A stretch of 63,151 bases of DNA, filler included, from Anaerolineae bacterium (GTDB lineage: Bacteria; Chloroflexota; Anaerolineae; B4-G1; DUEL01), in NCBI GenBank assembly GCA_041082215.1. It is 8 parts of 8 records of this genome, joined end to end, with 100 filler letters (N's around TTAATTAATTAA, not from the genome) between each part and the next. Parts side by side here need not be neighbours in the genome. Positions count along the whole stretch, not along the records: positions 17,168 to 38,268 come from JBDOIF010000033.1; 7 more parts are not named here. One strand, given 5' to 3'. Positions 1 to 61,373 of the stretch are shown here, one piece after another. Positions within the stretch are counted from its first letter, which is position 1. Every line of letters begins with the position of its first letter. The notes beneath the pieces are model-generated. The model was not told where the DNA came from and ran no database searches. It was given only the letters and a program-made list of their open reading frames with translations. A program made the position numbers and the translations under genes.

Positions 1-889
1 TGGAGAGACAGCCGGAGGGGACCCCCGCCCGCACCACCTGCATCGCCGCCGCGTCGGTGGTGCCCCGCTCCAGGACCTCCATCTGTACGGCCACCCCCGC
101 CGCCTCCGCCGCCCGCACCAGCAGGTCCCGCACCCGCGGATGGGCGACCATTCCCCAGTCCTGCACCTTCACCGCCGGGCCTTTGCCCAGCTCCACCGCC
201 ATCGGCCGCGCTTCCGGCGTATCCCCCGTCGTCGTCACATCCACCGCGATCGCCAGGTCCGGCTCGATCCCGAAGGCGGCCGTCCGCGCCCCGGAAAGGG
301 TGGTCTCCTCCTGCACGCTGAAGACAAAATGGACCTCGTTGGGGGTCCGGTCCAGCCAGCGCAGCGCCTCGATCAGCACCGCGCAGCCAATCCGGTCGTC
401 CATCGCCTTGGCGATCAGCCGCCGGCCCTGCACGGCGAAGGGCCGCACAAAGACAGCCGCATCCCCCACCCGCACCGGGCAGTCCTCCTTGCTTGCCACC
501 CCCACATCAATGTATAACTGGTCGAGCCGGGGGACCTTGGTCGGGTCGTCCCGCTTCGCCTCGACGCCGATCACCCCCAGAGTCCCGTCTTCAAACTGCA
601 CTCGACCCCCGATGCAGGTCAGGGGGTTCACGCCGCCAATGGGCGCAAAGCGCAGGAAGCCTCTTTCGTCCACGTGGGTGACGATGACACCGATCTCGTC
701 CATATGGGCGGCCAGCATGATCCGCTGCCCGGTGCCCTTCCCCTTCTTCACCGCTACCAGGCTCCCCAGCGGAGTCACCTGTACCTCGTCAACTAATGGT
801 TCGACCTCCTCCCGGATGACCGCCCGGATGTGGTCCTCAAAGCCCGAAGGTCCGTAGGTTTCGGTCAGTTTGCGAATGAGTTCTTTCAC
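1..889 (-). CDS. M42 family metallo-aminopeptidase (TET-like), 3' end runs off the window
   Basis: Not in the ORF track. GTG at 889 after an AGGGG RBS reads MKELIRKLTETYGPSGFED...IMLAAHMDEIG...GGV; paralogous to the two upstream M42 genes. Confidence 0.9.
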   Translation of the reverse strand, partial: MKELIRKLTETYGPSGFEDHIRAVIREEVEPLVDEVQVTPLGSLVAVKKGKGTGQRIMLAAHMDEIGVIVTHVDERGFLRFAPIGGVNPLTCIGGRVQFEDGTLGVIGVEAKRDDPTKVPRLDQLYIDVGVASKEDCPVRVGDAAVFVRPFAVQGRRLIAKAMDDRIGCAVLIEALRWLDRTPNEVHFVFSVQEETTLSGARTAAFGIEPDLAIAVDVTTTGDTPEARPMAVELGKGPAVKVQDWGMVAHPRVRDLLVRAAEAAGVAVQMEVLERGTTDAAAMQVVRAGVPSGCLS

Positions 890-25820: not shown

Positions 25821-27818
25821 ATGAAAAGCGAGTTCCTGCTGGCCTTTAACCAAATCTGTGCCGAGCGGAACCTGCCTCGGGAGGTGGTGCTGGAGGCCAT
25901 TCAGACCGCCCTCGTCTCCGCATATCGGCGGAACGTCGGCGCGCCTGCTGCCCAGAACGTCACCGCCCAGGTTGACCTGGAGTCCGGAAAGGCTCGCATC
26001 TACACCGAGCGCCGGGTGGTCGCCGAGGTGTCGGATCCGCAGGTGGAGATCTCCCTGGAAAAGGCCAGGGCCATCAAGCCGAACGCCCAGTTGGGGGATC
26101 TGATTATGGTGGACAGCACCCCCCACGACTTCGGCCGGATCGCCGCACAGTCCGCCCGCCAGATGATCCTGCAGCGGATCCGCGAGGCGGAACGGGACAT
26201 TCAGTACGCCCACTACGTGGAGCAGGAAGGGGAGCTGGTCTACGGGACCGTCCAGAGCGTCACGCCCCAGCAGGTCACCCTTCATCTGGAGCGGACCGAG
26301 GCGATCCTCCCCCGCAAGGAGATGGTGCCGGGCGAGCGGTACAGACTGCACGACCGTATCCGGGCTTACGTGGTCGAGGTGAAAAAGACCGGCCGGGGGC
26401 CTCAGATCATCGTCTCCCGCAGCCATAAGAAGATGCTCCAGCGACTGCTGGAACTGGAGGTCCCGGAGATCGCCAGCGGCGCGGTGGAGATCAAGGCCAT
26501 CGCCCGTGAGGCGGGCTCCCGCTCCAAGGTGGCCGTCATCGCCCGCCAGGAGGGACTGGACCCCGTGGGGGCGTGCGTCGGCATGCGGGGGATGCGTATC
26601 CAGTCCATCGTCAAAGAGCTAGGCGGGGAAAAGGTGGATATCATCGAGTGGAGCCCCGACCCGGTGACCTTCATCGCCAAGGCGCTGGGGCCGGCAAAGG
26701 TCCTCAGCGTGCTTCTGGAGGAGGACCCGGTTGAGGGTAAGACCGCCAATGTGGTCGTCCCCGACGATCAGCTCTCCCTCGCTATCGGCAAGGCGGGGCA
26801 GAACGCCCGGCTGGCAGCCAAACTGACCGGCTGGCGGATTGACATCCAGGGTGTGACGGAAGCCGCCGAGTGGGCTCTCCAGCAGGTCAATACCGATCCT
26901 GAGGTGCTCCCTGCATTGGGGCAGGCGGCGGAGCTTTTGCCGACAGTAGCCGCCGCCCTCCGGCGATACAACCAGGAGGGGATGCCCTACAACGCCGAAG
27001 AACTGGTGGCTATGCGTCGGGTTATCGAGGGGGTTCGCCTCCACTACATCGCCGGCCGGGATGCCCAGCGGGCCCGCCTGCGAGCGGAGGAGGCGGCCCG
27101 TCGCGCTGCGCTGGAGGAGGCCCGAACTGCCCGGGAGGCCGCCATCCGTGAGGCCCGGTCCCGCATCCCCCAGGCCGCCTACGCGATCCCCCTGGCCGAT
27201 GCTGGCTTCAGCGCCCGCGTGCTGGGCCACCTGGAACGGAACGGCGTGGTGAATGTAGGACAGTTGATGGAGCGCCTGGCCGAAGGGGATGAGGGGCTTT
27301 TAAAGCTGGACGGCATCGGCCCGAAGGCCCTCACCGAAATCCGCAAGGCGCTGGAAAGCCTGGACCTCCCGGAGGTGACGGCGGAGGCCGTTCCCGTCGA
27401 GGCGGCCCTGCCTGAGGTTCAGCCTGTCGTCGAAGAGGTCGAGGCCGTTGAGGAAGCCCTGCCGGTAGAGGCGGAGGCCGCAGAGGAGGCCCCCGTTCTG
27501 GCCGCGGAGGGGGTCCCGGCGGGGCCTGTTGCGGTGGAAGAGATGCCGGCCCCGGCCATCACAGCGGCGGCCGAACCGGTCCGGCCGGCCGTTATCGAAG
27601 AAAAGCCGCCCAGGGAGGAAGAGGAGACCTTCGAGGAGTGGGAGGAATTCTTCGAGGAGGCTGAAGAAGAAGAGGAGGAGATCGCAGTCCTGCGGAGGAG
27701 GGGAAAGCGCCGCAAGAAGCGCTCCCGGGAGCTGATTTACGACGAAAAGCTGGGCCGTGTGGTCGCCGTCCGCCGACACCGACGGGGCGAAGAGGAGGAG
27801 TGGGAGGAGCATCTGTAG
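25821..27818 (+). CDS. nusA: Transcription factor NusA with C-terminal alpha-CTD-like domain and acidic tail
   Basis: FGRIAAQ, S1 and KH motifs ([39 protein letters not shown]); 665 aa. Confidence 0.96.
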
Positions 27819-31353: not shown

Positions 31354-32203
31354 GCCCCGGGGGCTGACCTCCCACGACGTTGTGGACCGGGTGCGGATGG
31401 TGGCCGGGCAGCGCAGGGTGGGCCACGCCGGCACCCTGGACCCGATGGCCACCGGTGTTCTCCTTATCTGCCTCGGACGTGCTACCCGCCTGGCCGAATA
31501 CCTGATGGCTTCCCCCAAGACCTACCGGGCCCGCGTCCGTCTGGGCATCACAACCGATACCGGCGATGCCGGGGGGACGGCGCTGGAAGAACAGCCAGTG
31601 GAGGTCGGCAGGGAGGCCGTGGAGCAGGCACTGGAGCGGTTCCGGGGCCCCATCCTCCAGGTCCCTCCGATGTACTCCGCTCTGAGGTCTGGAGGAAAGC
31701 GGCTCTACGAGCTGGCGCGGGAGGGGAAGGTTGTGGAAAGAAGGCCCCGGCCGGTGGAGGTCTACCGGATCGAGCTGGTGGAATGGGCGCCGCCGGAGCT
31801 GGTGCTGGAGCTGGATTGCTCTCCGGGGACCTACGTCCGTGCCCTGGCCCGCGACCTGGGGGAGGCGCTGGGGTGCGGCGGGCACCTGAGCGGCCTGGTC
31901 CGGCTGGCCTCCGGCGACTTTCGGCTGGAGGAGGCGGTTCGGCTGGAGGAATTGACGCGGGAGCGGCTTCCCTCCCTGCTGCTGCCCCTTGATACTGCGC
32001 TGCGCCGCTGGCCGGCCCTGTACCTGGATGAGGCGGCGGCGCAGACGGTGCGGTCGGGCCGGCCGGTGGCCGCCTGGTTGCTGGAGCCGGAGGGGGACGT
32101 CTCCTCCCTGGCCCGTGCCTACGGCCCGGACGGCGCCTTCCTGGCCGTGATGGAGTACCGGCCCGATCAGGAAGTCTGGCATCCACGCAAGGTCTTTGGC
32201 TGA
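31328..32203 (+). CDS. truB: tRNA pseudouridine(55) synthase
   Basis: TSHDVV, GHAGTLDPMATG, QVPPMYSA, CSPGTYVRALARD. Confidence 0.95.
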   Translation: MDGILNLNKPRGLTSHDVVDRVRMVAGQRRVGHAGTLDPMATGVLLICLGRATRLAEYLMASPKTYRARVRLGITTDTGDAGGTALEEQPVEVGREAVEQALERFRGPILQVPPMYSALRSGGKRLYELAREGKVVERRPRPVEVYRIELVEWAPPELVLELDCSPGTYVRALARDLGEALGCGGHLSGLVRLASGDFRLEEAVRLEELTRERLPSLLLPLDTALRRWPALYLDEAAAQTVRSGRPVAAWLLEPEGDVSSLARAYGPDGAFLAVMEYRPDQEVWHPRKVFG

Positions 32204-32204
32204 T

Positions 32205-33140
32205 ATGCGGATCGTCCACTCTCTGGAAGAGGCGATGCTCTCTTCCCCTTCCCACCTCACCATCGGGGCCTTCGACGGGGTCCATCGGGGCCATCAACAC
32301 CTGATCGGCTCGATGGCGGAGGAGGCGCACGCGGCAGGCCGGGCAGCGGTGGCACTGACTTTCGACCCCCATCCGGGGGCGCTGCTGGGTCGGAGTCCGG
32401 TGGCCGCCCTCTCGACCATCGAGGAGCGGGCTGCGCTGATGGCGGACCTGGGGGTGGACCTTCTGGTGGTGTTGCGGTTTACCCCCGCCCTGGCCGGGAC
32501 CCCGGCCTACCGTTTTGTCCATTCCCTTTGCCACTACCTCGGGCTGAAGGAGCTCTGGGCCGGACCGGATTTCGCCCTTGGCCACCGGCGGGAAGGGGAC
32601 GTCCCGTATCTCCGTCGGCTGGGAGAGCGAATGGGGTTCGAGGTCCGTGTGGTGGAACCGCTCCGCTGGCGGGGGGAGGTGGTCAGTTCCACACGCATTC
32701 GGGCGGCCCTCACTGCTGGCGACATAGAGGAAGCCAACGGTTGTCTGGGCCGTCCCTACCATCTGACCGGCACCGTCGTCCGTGGGCGGGGGTTGGGGCG
32801 GACGCTGGGGATTCCCACCGCCAACCTGGAGCTGCCGCCGGGCCGCCTGATCCCGGCCAACGGAGTCTATGCGTGCCTGGCGCGGCCGGAGAGGGGAGGG
32901 GAGTGGCCGGCGGTGGTCAACGTGGGGGTGCGTCCCACCATCGCCGCTGACCATCTGACGGTGGAGGCCCATCTCCTGGATTTCGATGGGGACCTGTACG
33001 GCCAGGAGCTGGGGCTGGATTTCATCGCCTGGCTGCGGGATGAGGAGATTTTCCCCAGCCTGAACGCGCTGGTGGACCAGATTCAACAGGACATCGTCCA
33101 GGCCAGGCGTGTTCTGGAGGACCAGAGGGGTCCGGTTTGA
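32205..33140 (+). CDS. ribF: Bifunctional riboflavin kinase/FAD synthetase
   Basis: GAFDGVHRGH, VSSTRIR, GIPTAN, GVRPT, VEAHLLDF. Confidence 0.95.
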   Translation: MRIVHSLEEAMLSSPSHLTIGAFDGVHRGHQHLIGSMAEEAHAAGRAAVALTFDPHPGALLGRSPVAALSTIEERAALMADLGVDLLVVLRFTPALAGTPAYRFVHSLCHYLGLKELWAGPDFALGHRREGDVPYLRRLGERMGFEVRVVEPLRWRGEVVSSTRIRAALTAGDIEEANGCLGRPYHLTGTVVRGRGLGRTLGIPTANLELPPGRLIPANGVYACLARPERGGEWPAVVNVGVRPTIAADHLTVEAHLLDFDGDLYGQELGLDFIAWLRDEEIFPSLNALVDQIQQDIVQARRVLEDQRGPV

Positions 33141-33164
33141 CAAATCCCCGGTTCTCGTTATAAT
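33137..33164 (+). promoter_or_regulatory. Consensus promoter for rplU-rpmA-rpmE
   Basis: TTGACA-16 nt-TATAAT. Confidence 0.75.
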
Positions 33165-33221
33165 ATCAGGGTGGCCGGGCCACTGGGCGCGGCCTGTATC
33201 GTGCTTTTGGGAGGCGTCATC

Positions 33222-33533
33222 GTGTACGCGGTGATTCGATCGGGAGGACGACAATATCGAGTTCAGGCGGGCGACCAGATTCTGGTTGAAAAACTGCCCG
33301 TCGAGGCCGGGCAACAGGTCTCTCTGGATGAGGTTCTGCTGGTGGCCGGTGAGGGGGAAGTGAAGATCGGTGCCCCGCTGGTGGAAGGTGCGCGGGTTCA
33401 GGCAACGGTGATGGCTCACGAAAAGGGGCCGAAGATCCGCATCTTCAAATACCGGCCCAAGGAGCGGTACCGGCGGCGGATGGGCCACCGGCAGACCTAT
33501 ACCCGCCTGCGCGTGGATGAAATTGTGGTGTAG
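33222..33533 (+). CDS. rplU: 50S ribosomal protein L21
   Basis: [14 protein letters not shown]...GHRQTYT; GTG at 33222. Confidence 0.95.
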
Positions 33534-33547
33534 TGGGAGGTTGAGGG

Positions 33548-33808
33548 ATGGCCCACAAAAAAGGCGGCGGAAAGAGTCGGAACGGACGAGATAGCCTCAG
33601 CAAGCGGCTGGGGGTCAAGAAATACGGCGGCGAATGGGTCCGCGCAGGCCACATCATCGTCCGGCAGCGCGGTATGACGATCAAGCCGGGCACGAACGTG
33701 GGGATGGGGAAGGACTACACCCTTTTTGCCCTGAGCGACGGGTTCGTCCGCTTCGAGCCGGTCCGTGGCGGACGGAAGCGGGTTTCCGTACTTCCGGAGG
33801 GGAGGTAG
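33548..33808 (+). CDS. rpmA: 50S ribosomal protein L27
   Basis: [16 protein letters not shown]...IIVRQRG. Confidence 0.96.
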
Positions 33809-33814
33809 AGGATC

Positions 33815-34312
33815 GTGAAAGCAGGTATCCATCCCGAGTTCTATCCCGAGGCCCAGGTGATCTGCGCCTGCGGCAACACCTGGACCGTTGGGGCTACTGT
33901 CCCCGTCATCCGGACCGATGTTTGCTCCAAGTGCCATCCGTTCTTCACCGGCGAGCAGCGGATCGTGGACGCTGAGGGGCAGGTGGATCGGTTCCTGAGC
34001 CGGCTTCGCCGTCGAGATGAGCGGCTGGCCGAGGAGAGGGCCCGCAGGGAGGCGGAGCGCTCGCCGGATCAGCCGATCAGTGTGCTGGAGCTGGGAGCCC
34101 GGGCTGAGTCCGCGTTGATGGAGGCGGGGGTCAGGACCATCGGCGACGCGCTGGAAAAGCTGGCCCAGGGGGATGAGACCCTGACGGATCTGCGGGGGTT
34201 CGGCCTGAAGTCGCTGGCCACGCTGAAGAAGCGGCTCCGCGCCCGGGGGTTTGTCCTGCCCGGCGATGAGCTTACACAAGGGGAAGTGCCGGGCGAGGGG
34301 GAGACGGAGTAG
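33815..34312 (+). CDS. rpmE: 50S ribosomal protein L31 (Zn-binding type) fused to an RNAP alpha-CTD-like domain
   Basis: MKAGIHPE...CACG...CSKCHPFFTG...GQVDRF, followed by about 95 extra residues. Confidence 0.92.
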   Translation: MKAGIHPEFYPEAQVICACGNTWTVGATVPVIRTDVCSKCHPFFTGEQRIVDAEGQVDRFLSRLRRRDERLAEERARREAERSPDQPISVLELGARAESALMEAGVRTIGDALEKLAQGDETLTDLRGFGLKSLATLKKRLRARGFVLPGDELTQGEVPGEGETE

Positions 34313-34382
34313 AAGAGCAGGGCAGACCGGCGGGGGCAGGTGACTTCCTTCATCTGCCCCCGCTTTCATTGGAGAGAGGTGT

Positions 34383-34982
34383 ATGTACGGCAAGCCCAGC
34401 AGCGGTTGGATCGAGGTGATCTGCGGCAGCATGTTCTCCGGAAAGACCGAAGAGCTGATCCGACGGGTGCGCCGGGCGCAGATCGCCCACCAGAAGGTGC
34501 AGGTATTCAAACACAGCCTGGATGCGCGGTATGCCCAGCGGGAGGTGGCCTCCCATAACGGGCTGCAGATCGCGGCCGTCCCGGTGGAGAACGCCGCCCA
34601 GTTAGAAGAGCTGATCGAGCCAGATACGACAGTGGTCGCTATTGACGAGGGCCAGTTCTTCGATGGGGAATTGGTCCGGCTCTGTAAGGGGCTGGCCGAC
34701 CGGGGCGTGCGGGTCATCGTCGCAGGGCTGGATATGGATTTCCGGGGGGAGCCGTTCGGCCCGATGCCCTACCTGATGGCCGAGGCGGAGCGGGTGGATA
34801 AGCTCCAGGCCATCTGCGTGGTCTGCGGAGGCCCTGCCAGCCGAACCCAGCGGCTCATCAACGGCCGCCCCGCCGCCTACGACGATCCGGTGATCCTGGT
34901 CGGGGCCAGAGAGGTGTATGAAGCACGTTGCCGTGGATGCCATGAGGTCAGAGAAAGCAGTGGGCGGAATGAAAATGAGTAG
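34383..34982 (+). CDS. tdk: Thymidine kinase
   Basis: [27 protein letters not shown], two CxxC zinc motifs. Confidence 0.95.
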
Positions 34983-35535
34983 GAGAAAAGTCGAGCTGCC
35001 CAAGGCTGTGGACCGGGTGCTGCTGGATGAGGAGACGATCCAGCGGCGGGTGGAAGAGCTGGCGGCGCAGATCAGCGCCGACTACGCCGATGCTGGCGAC
35101 CTGGTGCTGGTAGGGGTCCTGAAAGGAGCCTTCATCTTCATGGCCGATCTGGCCCGGAGGCTGACCATCTCCCACCATGTGGACTTCATCGCCCTCTCCA
35201 GCTACAACCGGGGAGCGACCAGCACCGGCGCTGTCCGGTTGATCATGGACACCCGAACCCCGGTGACGGGGCGACATGTCCTGATTGTGGAGGACATCGT
35301 TGACACTGGCTACACGCTTGACTACCTGCTGAGCACCTTCCAGGCCCGCCGTCCCGCTTCCTTAAAAACCTGTGTCCTCCTGAGCAAGCCGGAGCGGCGC
35401 AAGGTCAACGCCCCAATCCACTACCTGGGGTTTGAGATCCCCGATGTCTGGGTGGTGGGATACGGGCTGGACTACGCCGACCGGTATCGGACCCTCCCCT
35501 ACATTGCTGCGTTGAAGCGGGAGGTGTATGAGTAG
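34975..35535 (+). CDS. hpt: Hypoxanthine phosphoribosyltransferase (paralog 1)
   Basis: [33 protein letters not shown]. Confidence 0.9.
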
Positions 35536-35578
35536 CTGGTAGCTGGTAGCTGAGTGGTAGTTGGCTAGGAGGGGGGCG

Positions 35579-36127
35579 ATGGGGCTGCGGGATGATGTGG
35601 CGAAAGTGCTGATTCCGGAGGAGAAGCTCCAGGCCCGGATCGCCGAGCTGGCGCGGGAGATTGATGCCACCTATTCCAGGGACGACCGTCCCCTTCTGGT
35701 CTGTGTCCTGAAGGGGGCCTTTATGTTTCTGGCCGACCTGACACGCCACCTGGAGACCCCCCACGAGGTGGATTTCATGGAGATCTCCTCTTACGGCAGG
35801 GGGACGGTGAGCAGCGGCGTGGTGCGGATTCTGCTGGACCTGGCGCAGAGCATCGAGGGGCGTCACGTGCTGATTGTGGAGGATATCATTGATACGGGGC
35901 GGACGCTGGATTACATCACCCGCAACCTGCGCACGCGCGGCCCGGCCAGCCTCCGGGTCTGCACGCTCCTGAGCAAGCCGTCCAGGAGGGAGATCGAGAT
36001 CCCGCTGGACTTCGTGGGCTTCGAGATTCCCGACGAGTTCGTGGTGGGTTACGGGCTGGATTTCGCCGAGATCTACCGGAATCTCCCGTTCATCGGCGTG
36101 TTGAAGGAAGAGGCATACCGGCAGTAA
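35579..36127 (+). CDS. hpt: Hypoxanthine phosphoribosyltransferase (paralog 2)
   Basis: VLKGAFMFLADL, VEDIIDTGRTL, EFVVGYGLD. Confidence 0.92.
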   Translation: MGLRDDVAKVLIPEEKLQARIAELAREIDATYSRDDRPLLVCVLKGAFMFLADLTRHLETPHEVDFMEISSYGRGTVSSGVVRILLDLAQSIEGRHVLIVEDIIDTGRTLDYITRNLRTRGPASLRVCTLLSKPSRREIEIPLDFVGFEIPDEFVVGYGLDFAEIYRNLPFIGVLKEEAYRQ

Positions 36128-58520: not shown

Positions 58521-59021
58521 CTACTCGCTCTCCCGCGCCCGCACCAGAAGCACCGGACACGGTGCACCGCGCAACACCCGGTCCGTAACACTTCCATATA
58601 CCCAGCGGCTCACGCCGGAGAGGCCGTGGGAGCTCATCACAATCAGGTCCACTCCGAACTCTCCAGCGCAGCGGAGGATCTCCTCGGCCGGATTCCCCTC
58701 CCGCACCCAGTATTGTACCGAAGCACCGTACCCCCGCAACTGGTTGGCCACCCCACGCAGGTAGAGCTCCATCTGGGCCTTTGCCCTCGCCAGCGCCGTG
58801 GTGGAAAGCTGCATCCCCGGCGGGTAAGATGAGAGCAAAGCGACCGTCCGATCCCCCAACCCCGTACTCAAAACCGAAATCAGGTGAACCTGGGTCTCCC
58901 CTGGACGGACCAGCGCCCGGACGTGGGGCAGGACGCATTCGGCCAGCTCCGACCCATCCAGCGGCACCAGAATACACCGATGGGCTATCGGTTCAACAGC
59001 CGGTCGCTCCAGACGGCCCAT
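58521..59021 (-). CDS. Universal stress protein
   Basis: ILVPLDGSELAE, GNPAEEI, MSSHGLSG...GSVTDRVL. Confidence 0.88.
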   Translation of the reverse strand: MGRLERPAVEPIAHRCILVPLDGSELAECVLPHVRALVRPGETQVHLISVLSTGLGDRTVALLSSYPPGMQLSTTALARAKAQMELYLRGVANQLRGYGASVQYWVREGNPAEEILRCAGEFGVDLIVMSSHGLSGVSRWVYGSVTDRVLRGAPCPVLLVRARESE

Positions 59022-59056
59022 CTCCCCCCGGGTCCTGAAACCGGATACCCACGACG

Positions 59057-59533
59057 CTACTTCGGCGGCCGCACCCGCACCAGGAGCACAGGGCAGTTGG
59101 CCCCCCGCAGGACCTTGTCTGCCACGCTCCCGTAAACCCAACGGCTGAGCCCGGAGCGACCATGGGTACACAGCGCGATCAGGTCCGCCCCGATCTCTTC
59201 GGCGTACTGGAGGATCTCCTCTGCTGGCTGGCCGAAACGGACCACCGTGTGGATCTTCAGCGCTCCGGACTGTAGCCGTTTGGCCACTCCTTCCAGGTAT
59301 TCCCCCAGCTCTCGCTCGATCCGCTTCCGCTCCGCCGTCTCCATCGCCAGGAAGTCGGCTGTCATATAGAAGGGGTAGACCTCCACGGCGGGGGCCACTG
59401 TGGGCACCACCACCGGCGCGACAGAGAGCAGGTGGACCTCGCTATCCCGTCCGCGGACGATCTCCGCCACGTGCGGCAGCACCTGCTCGGCCAGTTCCGA
59501 CCCGTCCAGCAGAACGACGATTTTCCGGTACAT
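59057..59533 (-). CDS. Universal stress protein
   Basis: MYRKIVVLLDGSELAE, THGRSGLSRWVYGSVADKV. Confidence 0.9.
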   Translation of the reverse strand: MYRKIVVLLDGSELAEQVLPHVAEIVRGRDSEVHLLSVAPVVVPTVAPAVEVYPFYMTADFLAMETAERKRIERELGEYLEGVAKRLQSGALKIHTVVRFGQPAEEILQYAEEIGADLIALCTHGRSGLSRWVYGSVADKVLRGANCPVLLVRVRPPK

Positions 59534-59556
59534 CGCACCCTCCTGGCGGGCTGAGG

Positions 59557-60018
59557 TCACTCAACTGGAGATGAAGGATTGGGAGTGATCCTCTCCTCAA
59601 AGGTGGTTGGCCGTATGGTCTGAGCGATCGCCTGCAGTTCACCTGCCGCCCCGGTCAGGCTCCGATCGCCGGTCGCTTCCAGCTTCTCCAGCGCGGAGAG
59701 CAGATACATCCGCACCGTGGTCGGATCGGCGGCGGGGTCCAGCGCCGCATCCAGCAGGTCAACCGCCTCGGGCGCCATGCCACTGGCCGCCATCTCATCC
59801 CGTATCGCTGCGACGCGCGCCCGAGATTCCTGGCTCAATGCCCGGTCGCTCCCAATCGAATACCACCACGTGCCCTGGGCCAGCGTCAGACCGAGAAGAA
59901 CACAGGCCAATACGGTTGAGAGGGTCCCAATCAGGACAATACCGATGCGCCGCCCGCGTTTGGAACCACGGGGTCTCATCCCCGCGCCACCTGGCCCTGT
60001 CCCATTCAGTGAGGCCAT
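59557..60018 (-). CDS. Hypothetical membrane-anchored protein
   Basis: One TM helix; tightly packed in the operon. Confidence 0.55.
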   Translation of the reverse strand: MASLNGTGPGGAGMRPRGSKRGRRIGIVLIGTLSTVLACVLLGLTLAQGTWWYSIGSDRALSQESRARVAAIRDEMAASGMAPEAVDLLDAALDPAADPTTVRMYLLSALEKLEATGDRSLTGAAGELQAIAQTIRPTTFEERITPNPSSPVE

Positions 60019-60019
60019 C

Positions 60020-60580
60020 TCATGCCTCCGCCAGCATTGCCCCCCTGCGCAGAGCCTCTTTATTCAAATCCAGCAGTTTGCGATGTCGCTCCGGCAGATG
60101 GTTCTCGAGCGCCTGCTCCACCGCCTCCAGCGGCACCACGCCGGTGGCCTTCACCAGCGCCCCCAGACAGACCACGTTGGCCAGGCGGACGTTGCCCAGC
60201 TCTGTAGCCAGGTCGCTGGCAGGGACGTAGATCACACGAATATCCTCCCGTCCACTCCGCTGAGGGACCAGGGAGGAGTTGACCACCAGCACCCCTCCTG
60301 GCCTGACCAGCGGCTCGAACGCCTCCATTGAAGGGATGTTGAGGACAACCGCAGCGCTGGGCCGGCGGACCAGGGGGGAGCCGATCTCTTCGTCCGAGAC
60401 GACCACCGTGCAACGGGCCTTTCCGCCGCGCATCTCGGGGCCGTAGGAAGGGATCCAGGTGACGTGGAACCTCTCGTCCATCGCCGCGTAGGCCAGGAGC
60501 TGCCCGGCGAAGAGCGCCCCCTGACCGCCGAAACCGGAGAAGATGATCTCCTCCTGTACCTTCCGTTTCGCCTTCTGCAT
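60020..60580 (-). CDS. 2-oxoacid:ferredoxin oxidoreductase gamma subunit
   Basis: [19 protein letters not shown]. Confidence 0.92.
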
Positions 60581-60581
60581 C

Positions 60582-61373
60582 CTACTTTCCCTCCTCCAGC
60601 GCTCGCACCGCATCCGTCACTTTCGTATCCCCCAGCGGGAAGTAGGCCACCATATGCTCTTTGGCCCACTCCAGCGCTTCCACCGGCCCCATGTGCCAGT
60701 TGGTGTTACAGGTGGAGAGGATCTCCACCATCGAGAAGCCCAACCCGGCCAGTTGCGTCTGGAAGGCCAGCCTGATCGCCTTTTTGGTGCGCCGGATGCC
60801 CGGCACGTCCAGCACCGCCTGGCGGGTGACGTAGGCCGCGCCGGGAAGCATGCCGATCAGTTCGGCCATCTTCATCGGCCAGCCCGCTGTCTCCACATCC
60901 CGCCCGCGCGGGGAGGAGGTGGTGACCTGCCCGGGCAGGGTGGTGGGGGCCATCTGCCCGCCCGTCATCCCGTAGATGGCGTTGTTGACGAAGATGGTGG
61001 TGATGAGTTCTCCCCGGTTGGCGGTGTGGATGATCTCCGAGGTGCCGATGGCGGCGAGATCCCCATCGCCCTGGTAGGTGAAGACCACTTTGTCCGGGCT
61101 GACCCGTTTGATGCCGGTGGCCATCGCCGGGGCTCGCCCGTGGGCCGCCTCGCAGAAGTCCATATTGAAGTAGTCATACGCCAGCACCGCGCACCCAACC
61201 GGCGCCACGCCAATCGTCCGCTCCCGGACGCCCAGTTCGTCAATCACTTCGGCGATGAGCCGGTGGATGACCCCGTGGGTGCAGCCGGGGCAGTAGTGGG
61301 TGAATCGGGGCGTCAGGCTCTCCGGGTACTGGTAGACCAGCTCCATATCGGCTGGGATCTCAACAGTTGCCAT
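60582..61373 (-). CDS. 2-oxoacid:ferredoxin oxidoreductase beta (TPP-binding) subunit, Vor-like
   Basis: [41 protein letters not shown]. Confidence 0.92.

Follow-up and report, generated by a model that had tools for sequence, protein, structure and literature searches.

Why should a protein of the ribosome end in a domain that belongs to RNA polymerase (RNAP)? The question is raised by rpmE, the gene for ribosomal protein L31, of an Anaerolineae bacterium within the Chloroflexota (assembly GCA_041082215.1). We analyzed a stretch of 63,151 nucleotides from this genome (the window), for which a sequence-only reading had proposed that the L31 encoded at 33815..34312 is fused to a domain resembling the C-terminal domain of the RNAP alpha subunit (alpha-CTD). 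The fusion is borne out by the open reading frame (ORF), by Pfam, by BLASTP against the genome's own RpoA, by an AlphaFold2 (AF2) model compared with solved structures through Foldseek and VIA-align, and by the proteins of relatives. The contig carrying the finding (G000:C114, 21101 bases) makes up positions 17168-38268 of the window; the remainder of the window is N or off-contig.

The domain on bL31 and its fold

Both Pfam models that the sequence-only reading had singled out for a scan match the protein above their cut-offs. Ribosomal_L31 (PF01197) covers residues 1-63 with 90 bits against a cut-off of 27 (E 1.1e-25), and RNA_pol_A_CTD (PF03118) covers residues 79-141 with a score of 27.8 bits (E 2e-6), the curated threshold being 23.8; in a profile scan of the genome, the L31 alpha-CTD scored 29.7 bits. 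The NCBIfam L31 equivalogs NF000612 (85.8 vs. 70) and TIGR00105 (80.1 vs. 38.35) also exceed their cut-offs, and the extension weakly matches the C-terminal ends of several NCBIfam rpoA models. The Pfam scan of the protein gave no RNA_pol_L or RNA_pol_A_bac match. The alpha N-terminal domain is absent, its place is taken by bL31, and the genome has its true rpoA on a different contig. The extension therefore counts as an alpha-CTD-type domain and not as an RNAP alpha subunit, and the protein as a whole is a bL31. Its core is 57% identical to the bL31 chains of solved Thermus structures. Four cysteines are invariant across 48 fused L31 sequences, in an arrangement (CxC ... CxxC) that we take to be the type A zinc-binding motif of bL31. 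The core, the four cysteines and the presence of a single gene copy are shared with bL31 type A, while canonical bL31 is about 65-80 amino acids long in solved chains and the fusion protein adds some 100 residues, including a second folded domain.

An AF2 model built from the 48 fused sequences has a mean predicted local distance difference test (pLDDT) score of 81, and the extension domain by itself reaches about 90 or more. Beyond the core, the model has a single long helix at residues 56-81, then five helices packed into a compact domain (88-143), and finally an acidic tail without order, which is variable in both length and sequence in the alignment of fused L31s. The order read from the sequence, in which the L31 core leads through a charged helical linker to an alpha-CTD, is therefore the one recovered by Pfam, the alignment and the model. 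The range that had been given for the domain (nt 34064-34258, or residues 84-148) was right, with the peptide quoted for it beginning at residue 87 (nt 34073).

Structural comparison places the extension with solved alpha-CTDs. The best non-L31 matches in Foldseek are alpha-CTDs, with 9dvt_A aligning at a template modeling (TM) score of 0.88 and a root mean square deviation (rmsd) of 1.0 A over 62 columns. When 341 chains taken from Foldseek were re-scored with VIA-align, the top 31 rows were RNAP alpha chains throughout (Z 9.2-11.0), most with an rmsd of 0.9-2.5 A over 57-68 residues, headed by 8y5l, whose alpha-CTD belongs to a transcription-translation coupling complex of E. coli. The next family was the N-terminal helix-hairpin-helix (HhH) domain of Rad51/Dmc1 (Z 8.3-9.2). 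The alpha-CTD fold on which the sequence-only reading depended was thus found (TM 0.88, Z up to 11.0), and it is shared with the alpha-CTDs of E. coli, Synechococcus, Streptomyces, Bacillus and Thermus.

Spread, constraint and origins of the fusion

According to precomputed annotation, 108 of the best 120 database homologues (66-100% identity) have both Pfam domains, and the remaining 12 are of equal length; they are named as L31 of Anaerolineae, Anaerolineales or Chloroflexi metagenome-assembled genomes (MAGs). Databases label the fusion protein merely as '50S ribosomal protein L31'. For our own samples, an L31 was counted as fused when an uninterrupted match reached residue 141 or further. 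In a sample of 401 genomes from the phylum, 35 of the 45 genomes of the same class are fused, and among 150 of 692 matches listed there is no fused genome of another class. An even sample of 401 genomes from the class has at least 67 fused genomes, in 13 of 62 families, among 150 of 989 matches listed (f1, f84, f85, f96, f130, f2, f4, f3, f105, f125, f131 and parts of f8 and f120). Eight unpublished genomes are included in the class and phylum totals, none of them fused. Many other families of the class have L31 frames of about 100-130 amino acids with a helical extension only.

Outside these samples, 16 fused loci were found among the best 80 in GTDB species genomes, all named Chloroflexota or Anaerolineae and including one chromosome-level MAG, and the ESM Atlas contains 12 clusters with both domains, for which Chloroflexota is the commonest phylum. 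Two apparent exceptions were rejected. The match over residues 1-145 in G384, a genome of another class, contains a TAG and scores no higher than the bare L31 core, and a supposed actinobacterial fusion in Nocardioides lijunqiniae (L113, match 1-148) is false, with an L31 of 77 amino acids followed by prfA. The fusion is conserved in relatives and, having been met only under Chloroflexota or Anaerolineae names, is lineage-specific, as had been supposed. It is a lineage-specific extension of a ribosomal protein, built from a transcription domain.

The domain is maintained by selection. When the window gene was compared in pairs with four close relatives, the Nei-Gojobori ratios of nonsynonymous to synonymous substitution (dN/dS), which are rough figures since dS is high (0.6-1.2), were 0.04-0.12 for the L31 core, 0.11-0.21 for the L31 CTD, up to about 0.9 for the spacer and at least 0.6, or saturated, for the acidic tail. 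The CTD on L31 is therefore under purifying selection. The spacer, taken as the stretch between the VDRF motif and the CTD's first Leu-x-Leu, drifts in sequence (about 45% of its residues are charged), and is exactly 30 residues long in 46/46 sequences of the main L31 clade, with alignment A1 gap-free across it; in both f120 sequences it has 35 residues. The spacer looks like a rigid element of set length, unlike the flexible linker on which the true alpha subunit carries its CTD.

VIA-align, which relates model residues 81..149 to 1lb2_E 250..315, provided the residue numbering. The DNA-contact '265 determinant' of E. coli comprises, as we assume, R265, N268, C269, G296, K298 and S299. By numbering offset, R96, G130, K132 and S133 of the window protein are the equivalents of R265, G296, K298 and S299, and they are retained in 40, 40, 39 and 36 of the 46 main-clade sequences, respectively. 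With these four equivalents the window protein shows a partial likeness to the determinant of the RpoA alpha-CTD. The two domains differ at the N268 equivalent, which is N in 6/6 RpoA CTDs, whereas 30/46 L31 CTDs have K or R there and the window protein has S (its C269 equivalent is A). They also differ in the last helix, strongly basic and specific to L31 (K138 in 45/46, K139 in 44/46, R142 in 46/46 and R144 in 37/46), which gives the last 22 residues of the L31 CTD a net charge of +4.7, compared to +0.2 in RpoA and -1.2 in NusA. A further difference is one of placement, on a ribosomal protein rather than on the alpha N-terminal domain.

The genome has three places with an alpha-CTD: rpoA (314 amino acids, on the other contig), L31, and the C-terminal part of nusA, which in the window lies 6 kb upstream of rpmE. 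The three domains are of comparable similarity in BLASTP, with L31 and RpoA 38% identical over 61 amino acids without a gap (E 2e-11), L31 and NusA 38% over 96 (E 6e-8), and RpoA and NusA 37% over 73 (E 1e-13). All three run three residues beyond the length of the Pfam model (63 residues on 60 positions in L31 and RpoA; 59 on 56 in NusA), and are three residues longer than every solved alpha-CTD ranged beside them (E. coli, Synechococcus, Streptomyces, Bacillus, Thermus and plastid). The RpoA CTDs of fused and unfused families of the class have this same greater length. Because the insert is common to all three carriers, the L31 and NusA domains arose by duplication of the lineage's own alpha-CTD and not from outside.

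AF2 models the NusA CTD with the same five-helix pattern as the L31 CTD (pLDDT about 90), preceded by a 56-residue helix (residues 392-447). NusA homologues with at least 69% identity are all about 610-790 amino acids long, and precomputed annotation gives PF03118 in 72/120 of them. Beyond the CTD, the C-terminal half of NusA continues with some 110 acidic residues that are disordered and then a conserved basic C-terminal peptide, which forms a small beta-hairpin in the model and is followed by an invariant Trp (W661) near the C-terminus; the peptide is also present in the NusA of G722 and in P0241.

A maximum likelihood tree of 93 CTDs (67 columns) recovers a main L31 clade (44 rows, support 100/98), RpoA (6 rows, 93/93), the NusA CTDs of the window's relatives (39 rows, 100/100), and a fourth group of two f120 L31 CTDs with the two NusA CTDs of G722 (4 rows, 100/94). 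A single L31 clade appears in 0/200 bootstrap trees. In G722, nusA (673 amino acids, with two tandem CTDs) adjoins rplU-rpmA-rpmE divergently, and the L31 CTD is 81% identical to CTD2 of its own NusA and 52% identical to the L31 CTD of the window; the L31 CTD of G512 is of the same type. Family f120 has 3 fused genomes among 14 sampled. All five unfused f120 genomes tested have the domain on a frame of 603-662 amino acids that is NusA by size only, and the CTD thus seems able to serve on either carrier, L31 or NusA. The simplest reading of the f120 sequences would be a second, recent transfer from nusA to rpmE. A third, divergent type of L31 CTD, 28-37% identical to that of the window, occurs in f105, f125 and f131; it is without the basic helix and has a longer spacer (36 residues by count of the printed f105 sequence), and its representative in G714 has lost the hallmark residues. 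At the f8 locus L127 (G667), the motif search used for this typing picked out no L31.

The locus and other carriers of the module

Features of the locus are collected in the table below. With rplU and rpmA as its neighbors, a promoter-like site before them and a terminator-like hairpin after its stop, rpmE appears to close an rplU-rpmA-rpmE operon. Promoter-like sites numbered two, against 0.3 expected in shuffles. The hairpin has a stem of 12 pairs (-32.8 kcal/mol, z -2.8 by RNA fold), and is not among the reports of a simple terminator scan. The assembly (3.53 Mb in 174 contigs, 96% complete) has PF01197 in one place only. The sequence-only reading had also suggested scanning all ribosomal proteins for the domain; this drew a blank, as the genome scan for the alpha-CTD found no ribosomal protein other than L31 with it, and RpoA and NusA as its only other carriers.

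Features of the rpmE locus and of nusA in the window (window coordinates)
Feature	Position	Strand	Basis or remark
nusA, 665 aa, with paralogous alpha-CTD-type domain (residues about 450-513, nt 27168-27359)	25821..27818	+	
Sigma-70-type promoter-like site, TTGACA-16-TATAAT, before rplU	33137..33164	+	12/12 consensus matches; consensus match only
rplU (L21), first gene of the operon	33171..33533	+	named by reading translation; listed GTG start probably too early
rpmA (L27)	33548..33808	+	named by reading translation; stop 6 nt 5' of rpmE start
rpmE, bL31 fused to alpha-CTD-type domain, 165 aa, GTG start, stop included	33815..34312	+	ORF and family scans
bL31 core, zinc type (C17, C19, C37, C40), residues 1-63	33815..34003	+	Pfam E 1.1e-25
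Charged helix, residues 56-81 in model	33980..34057	+	AF2
Alpha-CTD-type helix-hairpin-helix domain, residues 84-150	34064..34264	+	Pfam, BLASTP, VIA-align
Acidic disordered tail, residues 151-165	34265..34309	+	pLDDT <50 at residues 154-165
GC-rich hairpin directly after rpmE stop, then UUUCAUU; terminator-like operon end	34332..34361	+	RNA fold

At the head of the operon (33137..33216), the perfect promoter consensus stops 7 nt 5' of the GTG given for L21 in the ORF list; the true start of rplU is probably a later codon, preceding 'YAVIRSGG'. Downstream of rpmE are a thymidine-kinase-like ORF (34383..34982) and, following it, two adjacent ORFs (34918..35535 and 35561..36127, both +) that resemble paralogous hypoxanthine phosphoribosyltransferases by reading of their translations. 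Two antisense frames rich in Pro, Arg and Gly (31548..33488 and 33497..34717, both -; 646 and 406 amino acids) overlap the real genes, and most likely result simply from the high G+C content.

The alpha-CTD module is not confined to these carriers. When 1.84 billion representatives were searched by HMMER with residues 79-152 as the query, 488 proteins matched with E <= 0.001, and 39 of them with E <= 1e-10. Pfam, run on 40 of the 150 representatives listed, confirmed the alpha-CTD domain in 38/40; the scanned proteins comprise L31 fusions and fragments of them, RpoA with two CTDs, tandem arrays, and fusions with glycoside hydrolase 18 (GH18), bactofilin or TPR domains. Short stand-alone proteins of 'helix + CTD' form (99-108 amino acids) were discarded as N-terminally truncated L31 fusions, and P0247 looks chimeric.

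Large proteins with 3-7 tandem alpha-CTD-like repeats (P0252, P0254, P0261, P0265, P0266, P0277, P0280, P0289, P0293 and P0294) mostly also have Sigma70 region 4, and some have HARE-HTH or MerR-type helix-turn-helix domains. A 1374-amino-acid frame on contig C71 of G722 (about 58800-60760, -) has six such repeats. P0245, P0263 and P0243 are either pieces of RpoA or proteins in which two alpha-CTDs stand in tandem, and in P0282, P0283, P0297, P0314 and P0353 the domain is fused to GH18 and Ig-like domains, bactofilin or TPR. Judged from these architectures, the domain is a mobile module that often sits beside DNA-binding and transcription domains. Arrays, two-CTD RpoA and the GH18, bactofilin and TPR fusions belong to the same domain subfamily as the L31 CTD, and differ from it in that their partner is never a ribosomal protein.

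Possible roles of the domain on the ribosome

The N-terminal domain of bL31 binds uL5 in the central protuberance and the C-terminal part binds uS13 on the 30S head, where in other bacteria it lies at bridge B1b (PMC10931766). In the coupling complexes that E. coli forms with NusA and NusG, one alpha-CTD is bound by NusA AR2 and another by NusA-N, with RNAP and NusG positioned on the 30S head (bioRxiv 10.1101/2020.03.01.972380). Set against this background, our favored though tentative proposal, to which we give somewhat less than an even chance, is that the L31 CTD serves on the 30S head as a docking module, carried by the ribosome, to which NusA, RNAP or nucleic acid would bind. The helix would hold the CTD about 4 nm from its 30S-head anchor (26 residues at 1.5 A per residue), and the CTD would be a ribosome-borne copy of the module by which RNAP and NusA dock onto each other. 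Its contact may be with NusA, with RNAP, or with nucleic acid lying between the two machines, and this contact would link the leading ribosome to the transcription elongation complex.

To our knowledge, transcription-translation coupling has so far been known via free factors (NusG, NusA, RfaH) or direct contacts between RNAP and the ribosome. Our literature survey, with subscription journals and supplements outside its scope, turned up no ribosomal protein that itself carries an RNAP domain and no description of an L31/alpha-CTD fusion. The paralogous CTD on NusA, the f120 L31 CTD as a near-copy of a NusA CTD, and the docking of NusA by alpha-CTDs in E. coli would all fit a link to transcription. 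In the E. coli complex TTC-B, an HhH-type module on a coupling factor pairs with an alpha-CTD and helps to bridge RNAP and ribosome, as described for that complex; in the lineage studied here, an HhH-type domain is found both at the end of NusA and on the ribosome, as known from genes and models. Compared to E. coli AR2, the C-terminal domain of this lineage's NusA is alpha-CTD-like and not AR-like. A more specific version of the proposal is that an alpha-CTD mimic on the 30S head of many Anaerolineae docks NusA or RNAP directly, a hard-wired form of coupling that would have evolved at least twice, once by an ancient alpha-CTD duplication and once from the NusA CTD. We regard it as unlikely.

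Several observations weigh against a docking module that links ribosome and polymerase. The NusA CTD gave no match at E <= 0.01 in fused genomes of f2, f4, f105, f125, f131 and f8, and it is narrower in spread than the L31 fusion. The NusA CTD was accordingly rejected as a general partner of the L31 CTD, since it went undetected in fused genomes of these six families. Hallmark contact residues are not always kept, as the closely related genus g220 (6 rows) has lost the equivalents of R96, G130, K132 and S133, and G714 has lost them too. The CTD of the main L31 clade has diverged from those of RpoA and NusA, and its basic helix looks more like an RNA-binding surface of a ribosomal protein. An invariant helical spacer of 30 residues suggests a fixed docking position, and not the flexible tether of the real alpha-CTD. 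That the CTD can reach the RNAP docking area is presumed by us on general geometric grounds. As for a repeated origin, which the tree and the 81% against 52% identities favor, the approximately unbiased (AU) test leaves a single origin of all L31 CTDs unrejected (p = 0.39), the group tested having been named after the tree was seen; given this result, the f120 L31 CTD may reflect either a second acquisition or an exchange with NusA in either direction.

The same spacer and helix are what an addition internal to the ribosome would lead one to expect. The CTD would then occupy a single fixed site, either on 16S rRNA or on proteins of the head, and would reinforce or regulate the B1 bridge region or the movement of the 30S head with no outside partner. 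A spacer that keeps its 30 residues in 46/46 main-clade sequences despite drifting sequence (dN/dS to about 0.9) favors such a role, as does a last helix whose K138, K139 and R142, with a net charge of +4.7 over the last 22 residues, are typical of rRNA-binding surfaces; g220, moreover, dispenses with the canonical alpha-CTD contact residues yet keeps this helix. The other L31 CTD types do not conform, however. On the f120 L31, the CTD is of the NusA type, has no basic helix and follows a spacer of 35 residues, and the third type in f105, f125 and f131 also has no such helix, so that the basic surface is not required for retention of a CTD on L31. We rank a purely internal role as the main rival to docking, and as somewhat less likely than it. 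If the HhH were instead a general nucleic-acid clamp, binding the duplex backbone of structured mRNA near the entry site or of chromosomal DNA whatever the sequence, it would hold ribosomes on the template or near the nucleoid. Retention of the R265, G296, K298 and S299 equivalents in 36-40 of the 46 main-clade rows, the K or R at position 99 in 30/46, the tandem arrays in which related CTD modules accompany Sigma70_r4, HARE-HTH and MerR-type DNA-binding domains, and the rank of the DNA-binding N-terminal HhH domains of Rad51/Dmc1 as next-best structures (Z 8.3-9.2) all point in this direction; but the contact residues are lost in g220 and G714, and the N that RpoA has at the N268 equivalent is not kept in L31, which leaves the clamp improbable.

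The remaining alternatives move the explanation away from the ribosome or from biology altogether. The alpha-CTD is a common target of transcription activators, and free bL31 carrying a mimic of it might titrate a transcription factor or autoregulate its operon. Autogenous control has a parallel in gamma-proteobacteria, in which free bL31 is a translational repressor (PMC10931766). Nothing in the data points to an off-ribosome role, however; the gene is the sole L31 gene and stands in a ribosomal-protein operon, and the conserved length of the spacer argues for a role in the assembled particle. We judge this alternative very improbable. A mis-assembly, missed stop or frameshift would have to be considered for a metagenome-assembled genome in 174 contigs, but the frame is uninterrupted in the fused genomes of the class (at least 67, single-contig ones such as G076 and G043 among them) and in the 16 named records, the fusion occurs in thousands of database proteins, and its CTD is under purifying selection. 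This recurrence across independent assemblies, with single-contig genomes among the fused ones, excludes mis-assembly for practical purposes, and we attach next to no probability to an artefact.

The L31 fusion marks a clade within the Anaerolineae. If the L31 CTD binds NusA, RNAP or the intervening nucleic acid, as in the docking proposal, a widespread and poorly studied class would have a coupling device of a new kind, simple in genetic terms and open to test; if the CTD docks on the ribosome instead, the ribosome would have taken up a transcription domain as one of its structural parts. In both cases, the fusion gives experiments a direct handle, since the domain is small, the spacer is fixed and the candidate residues are clear.

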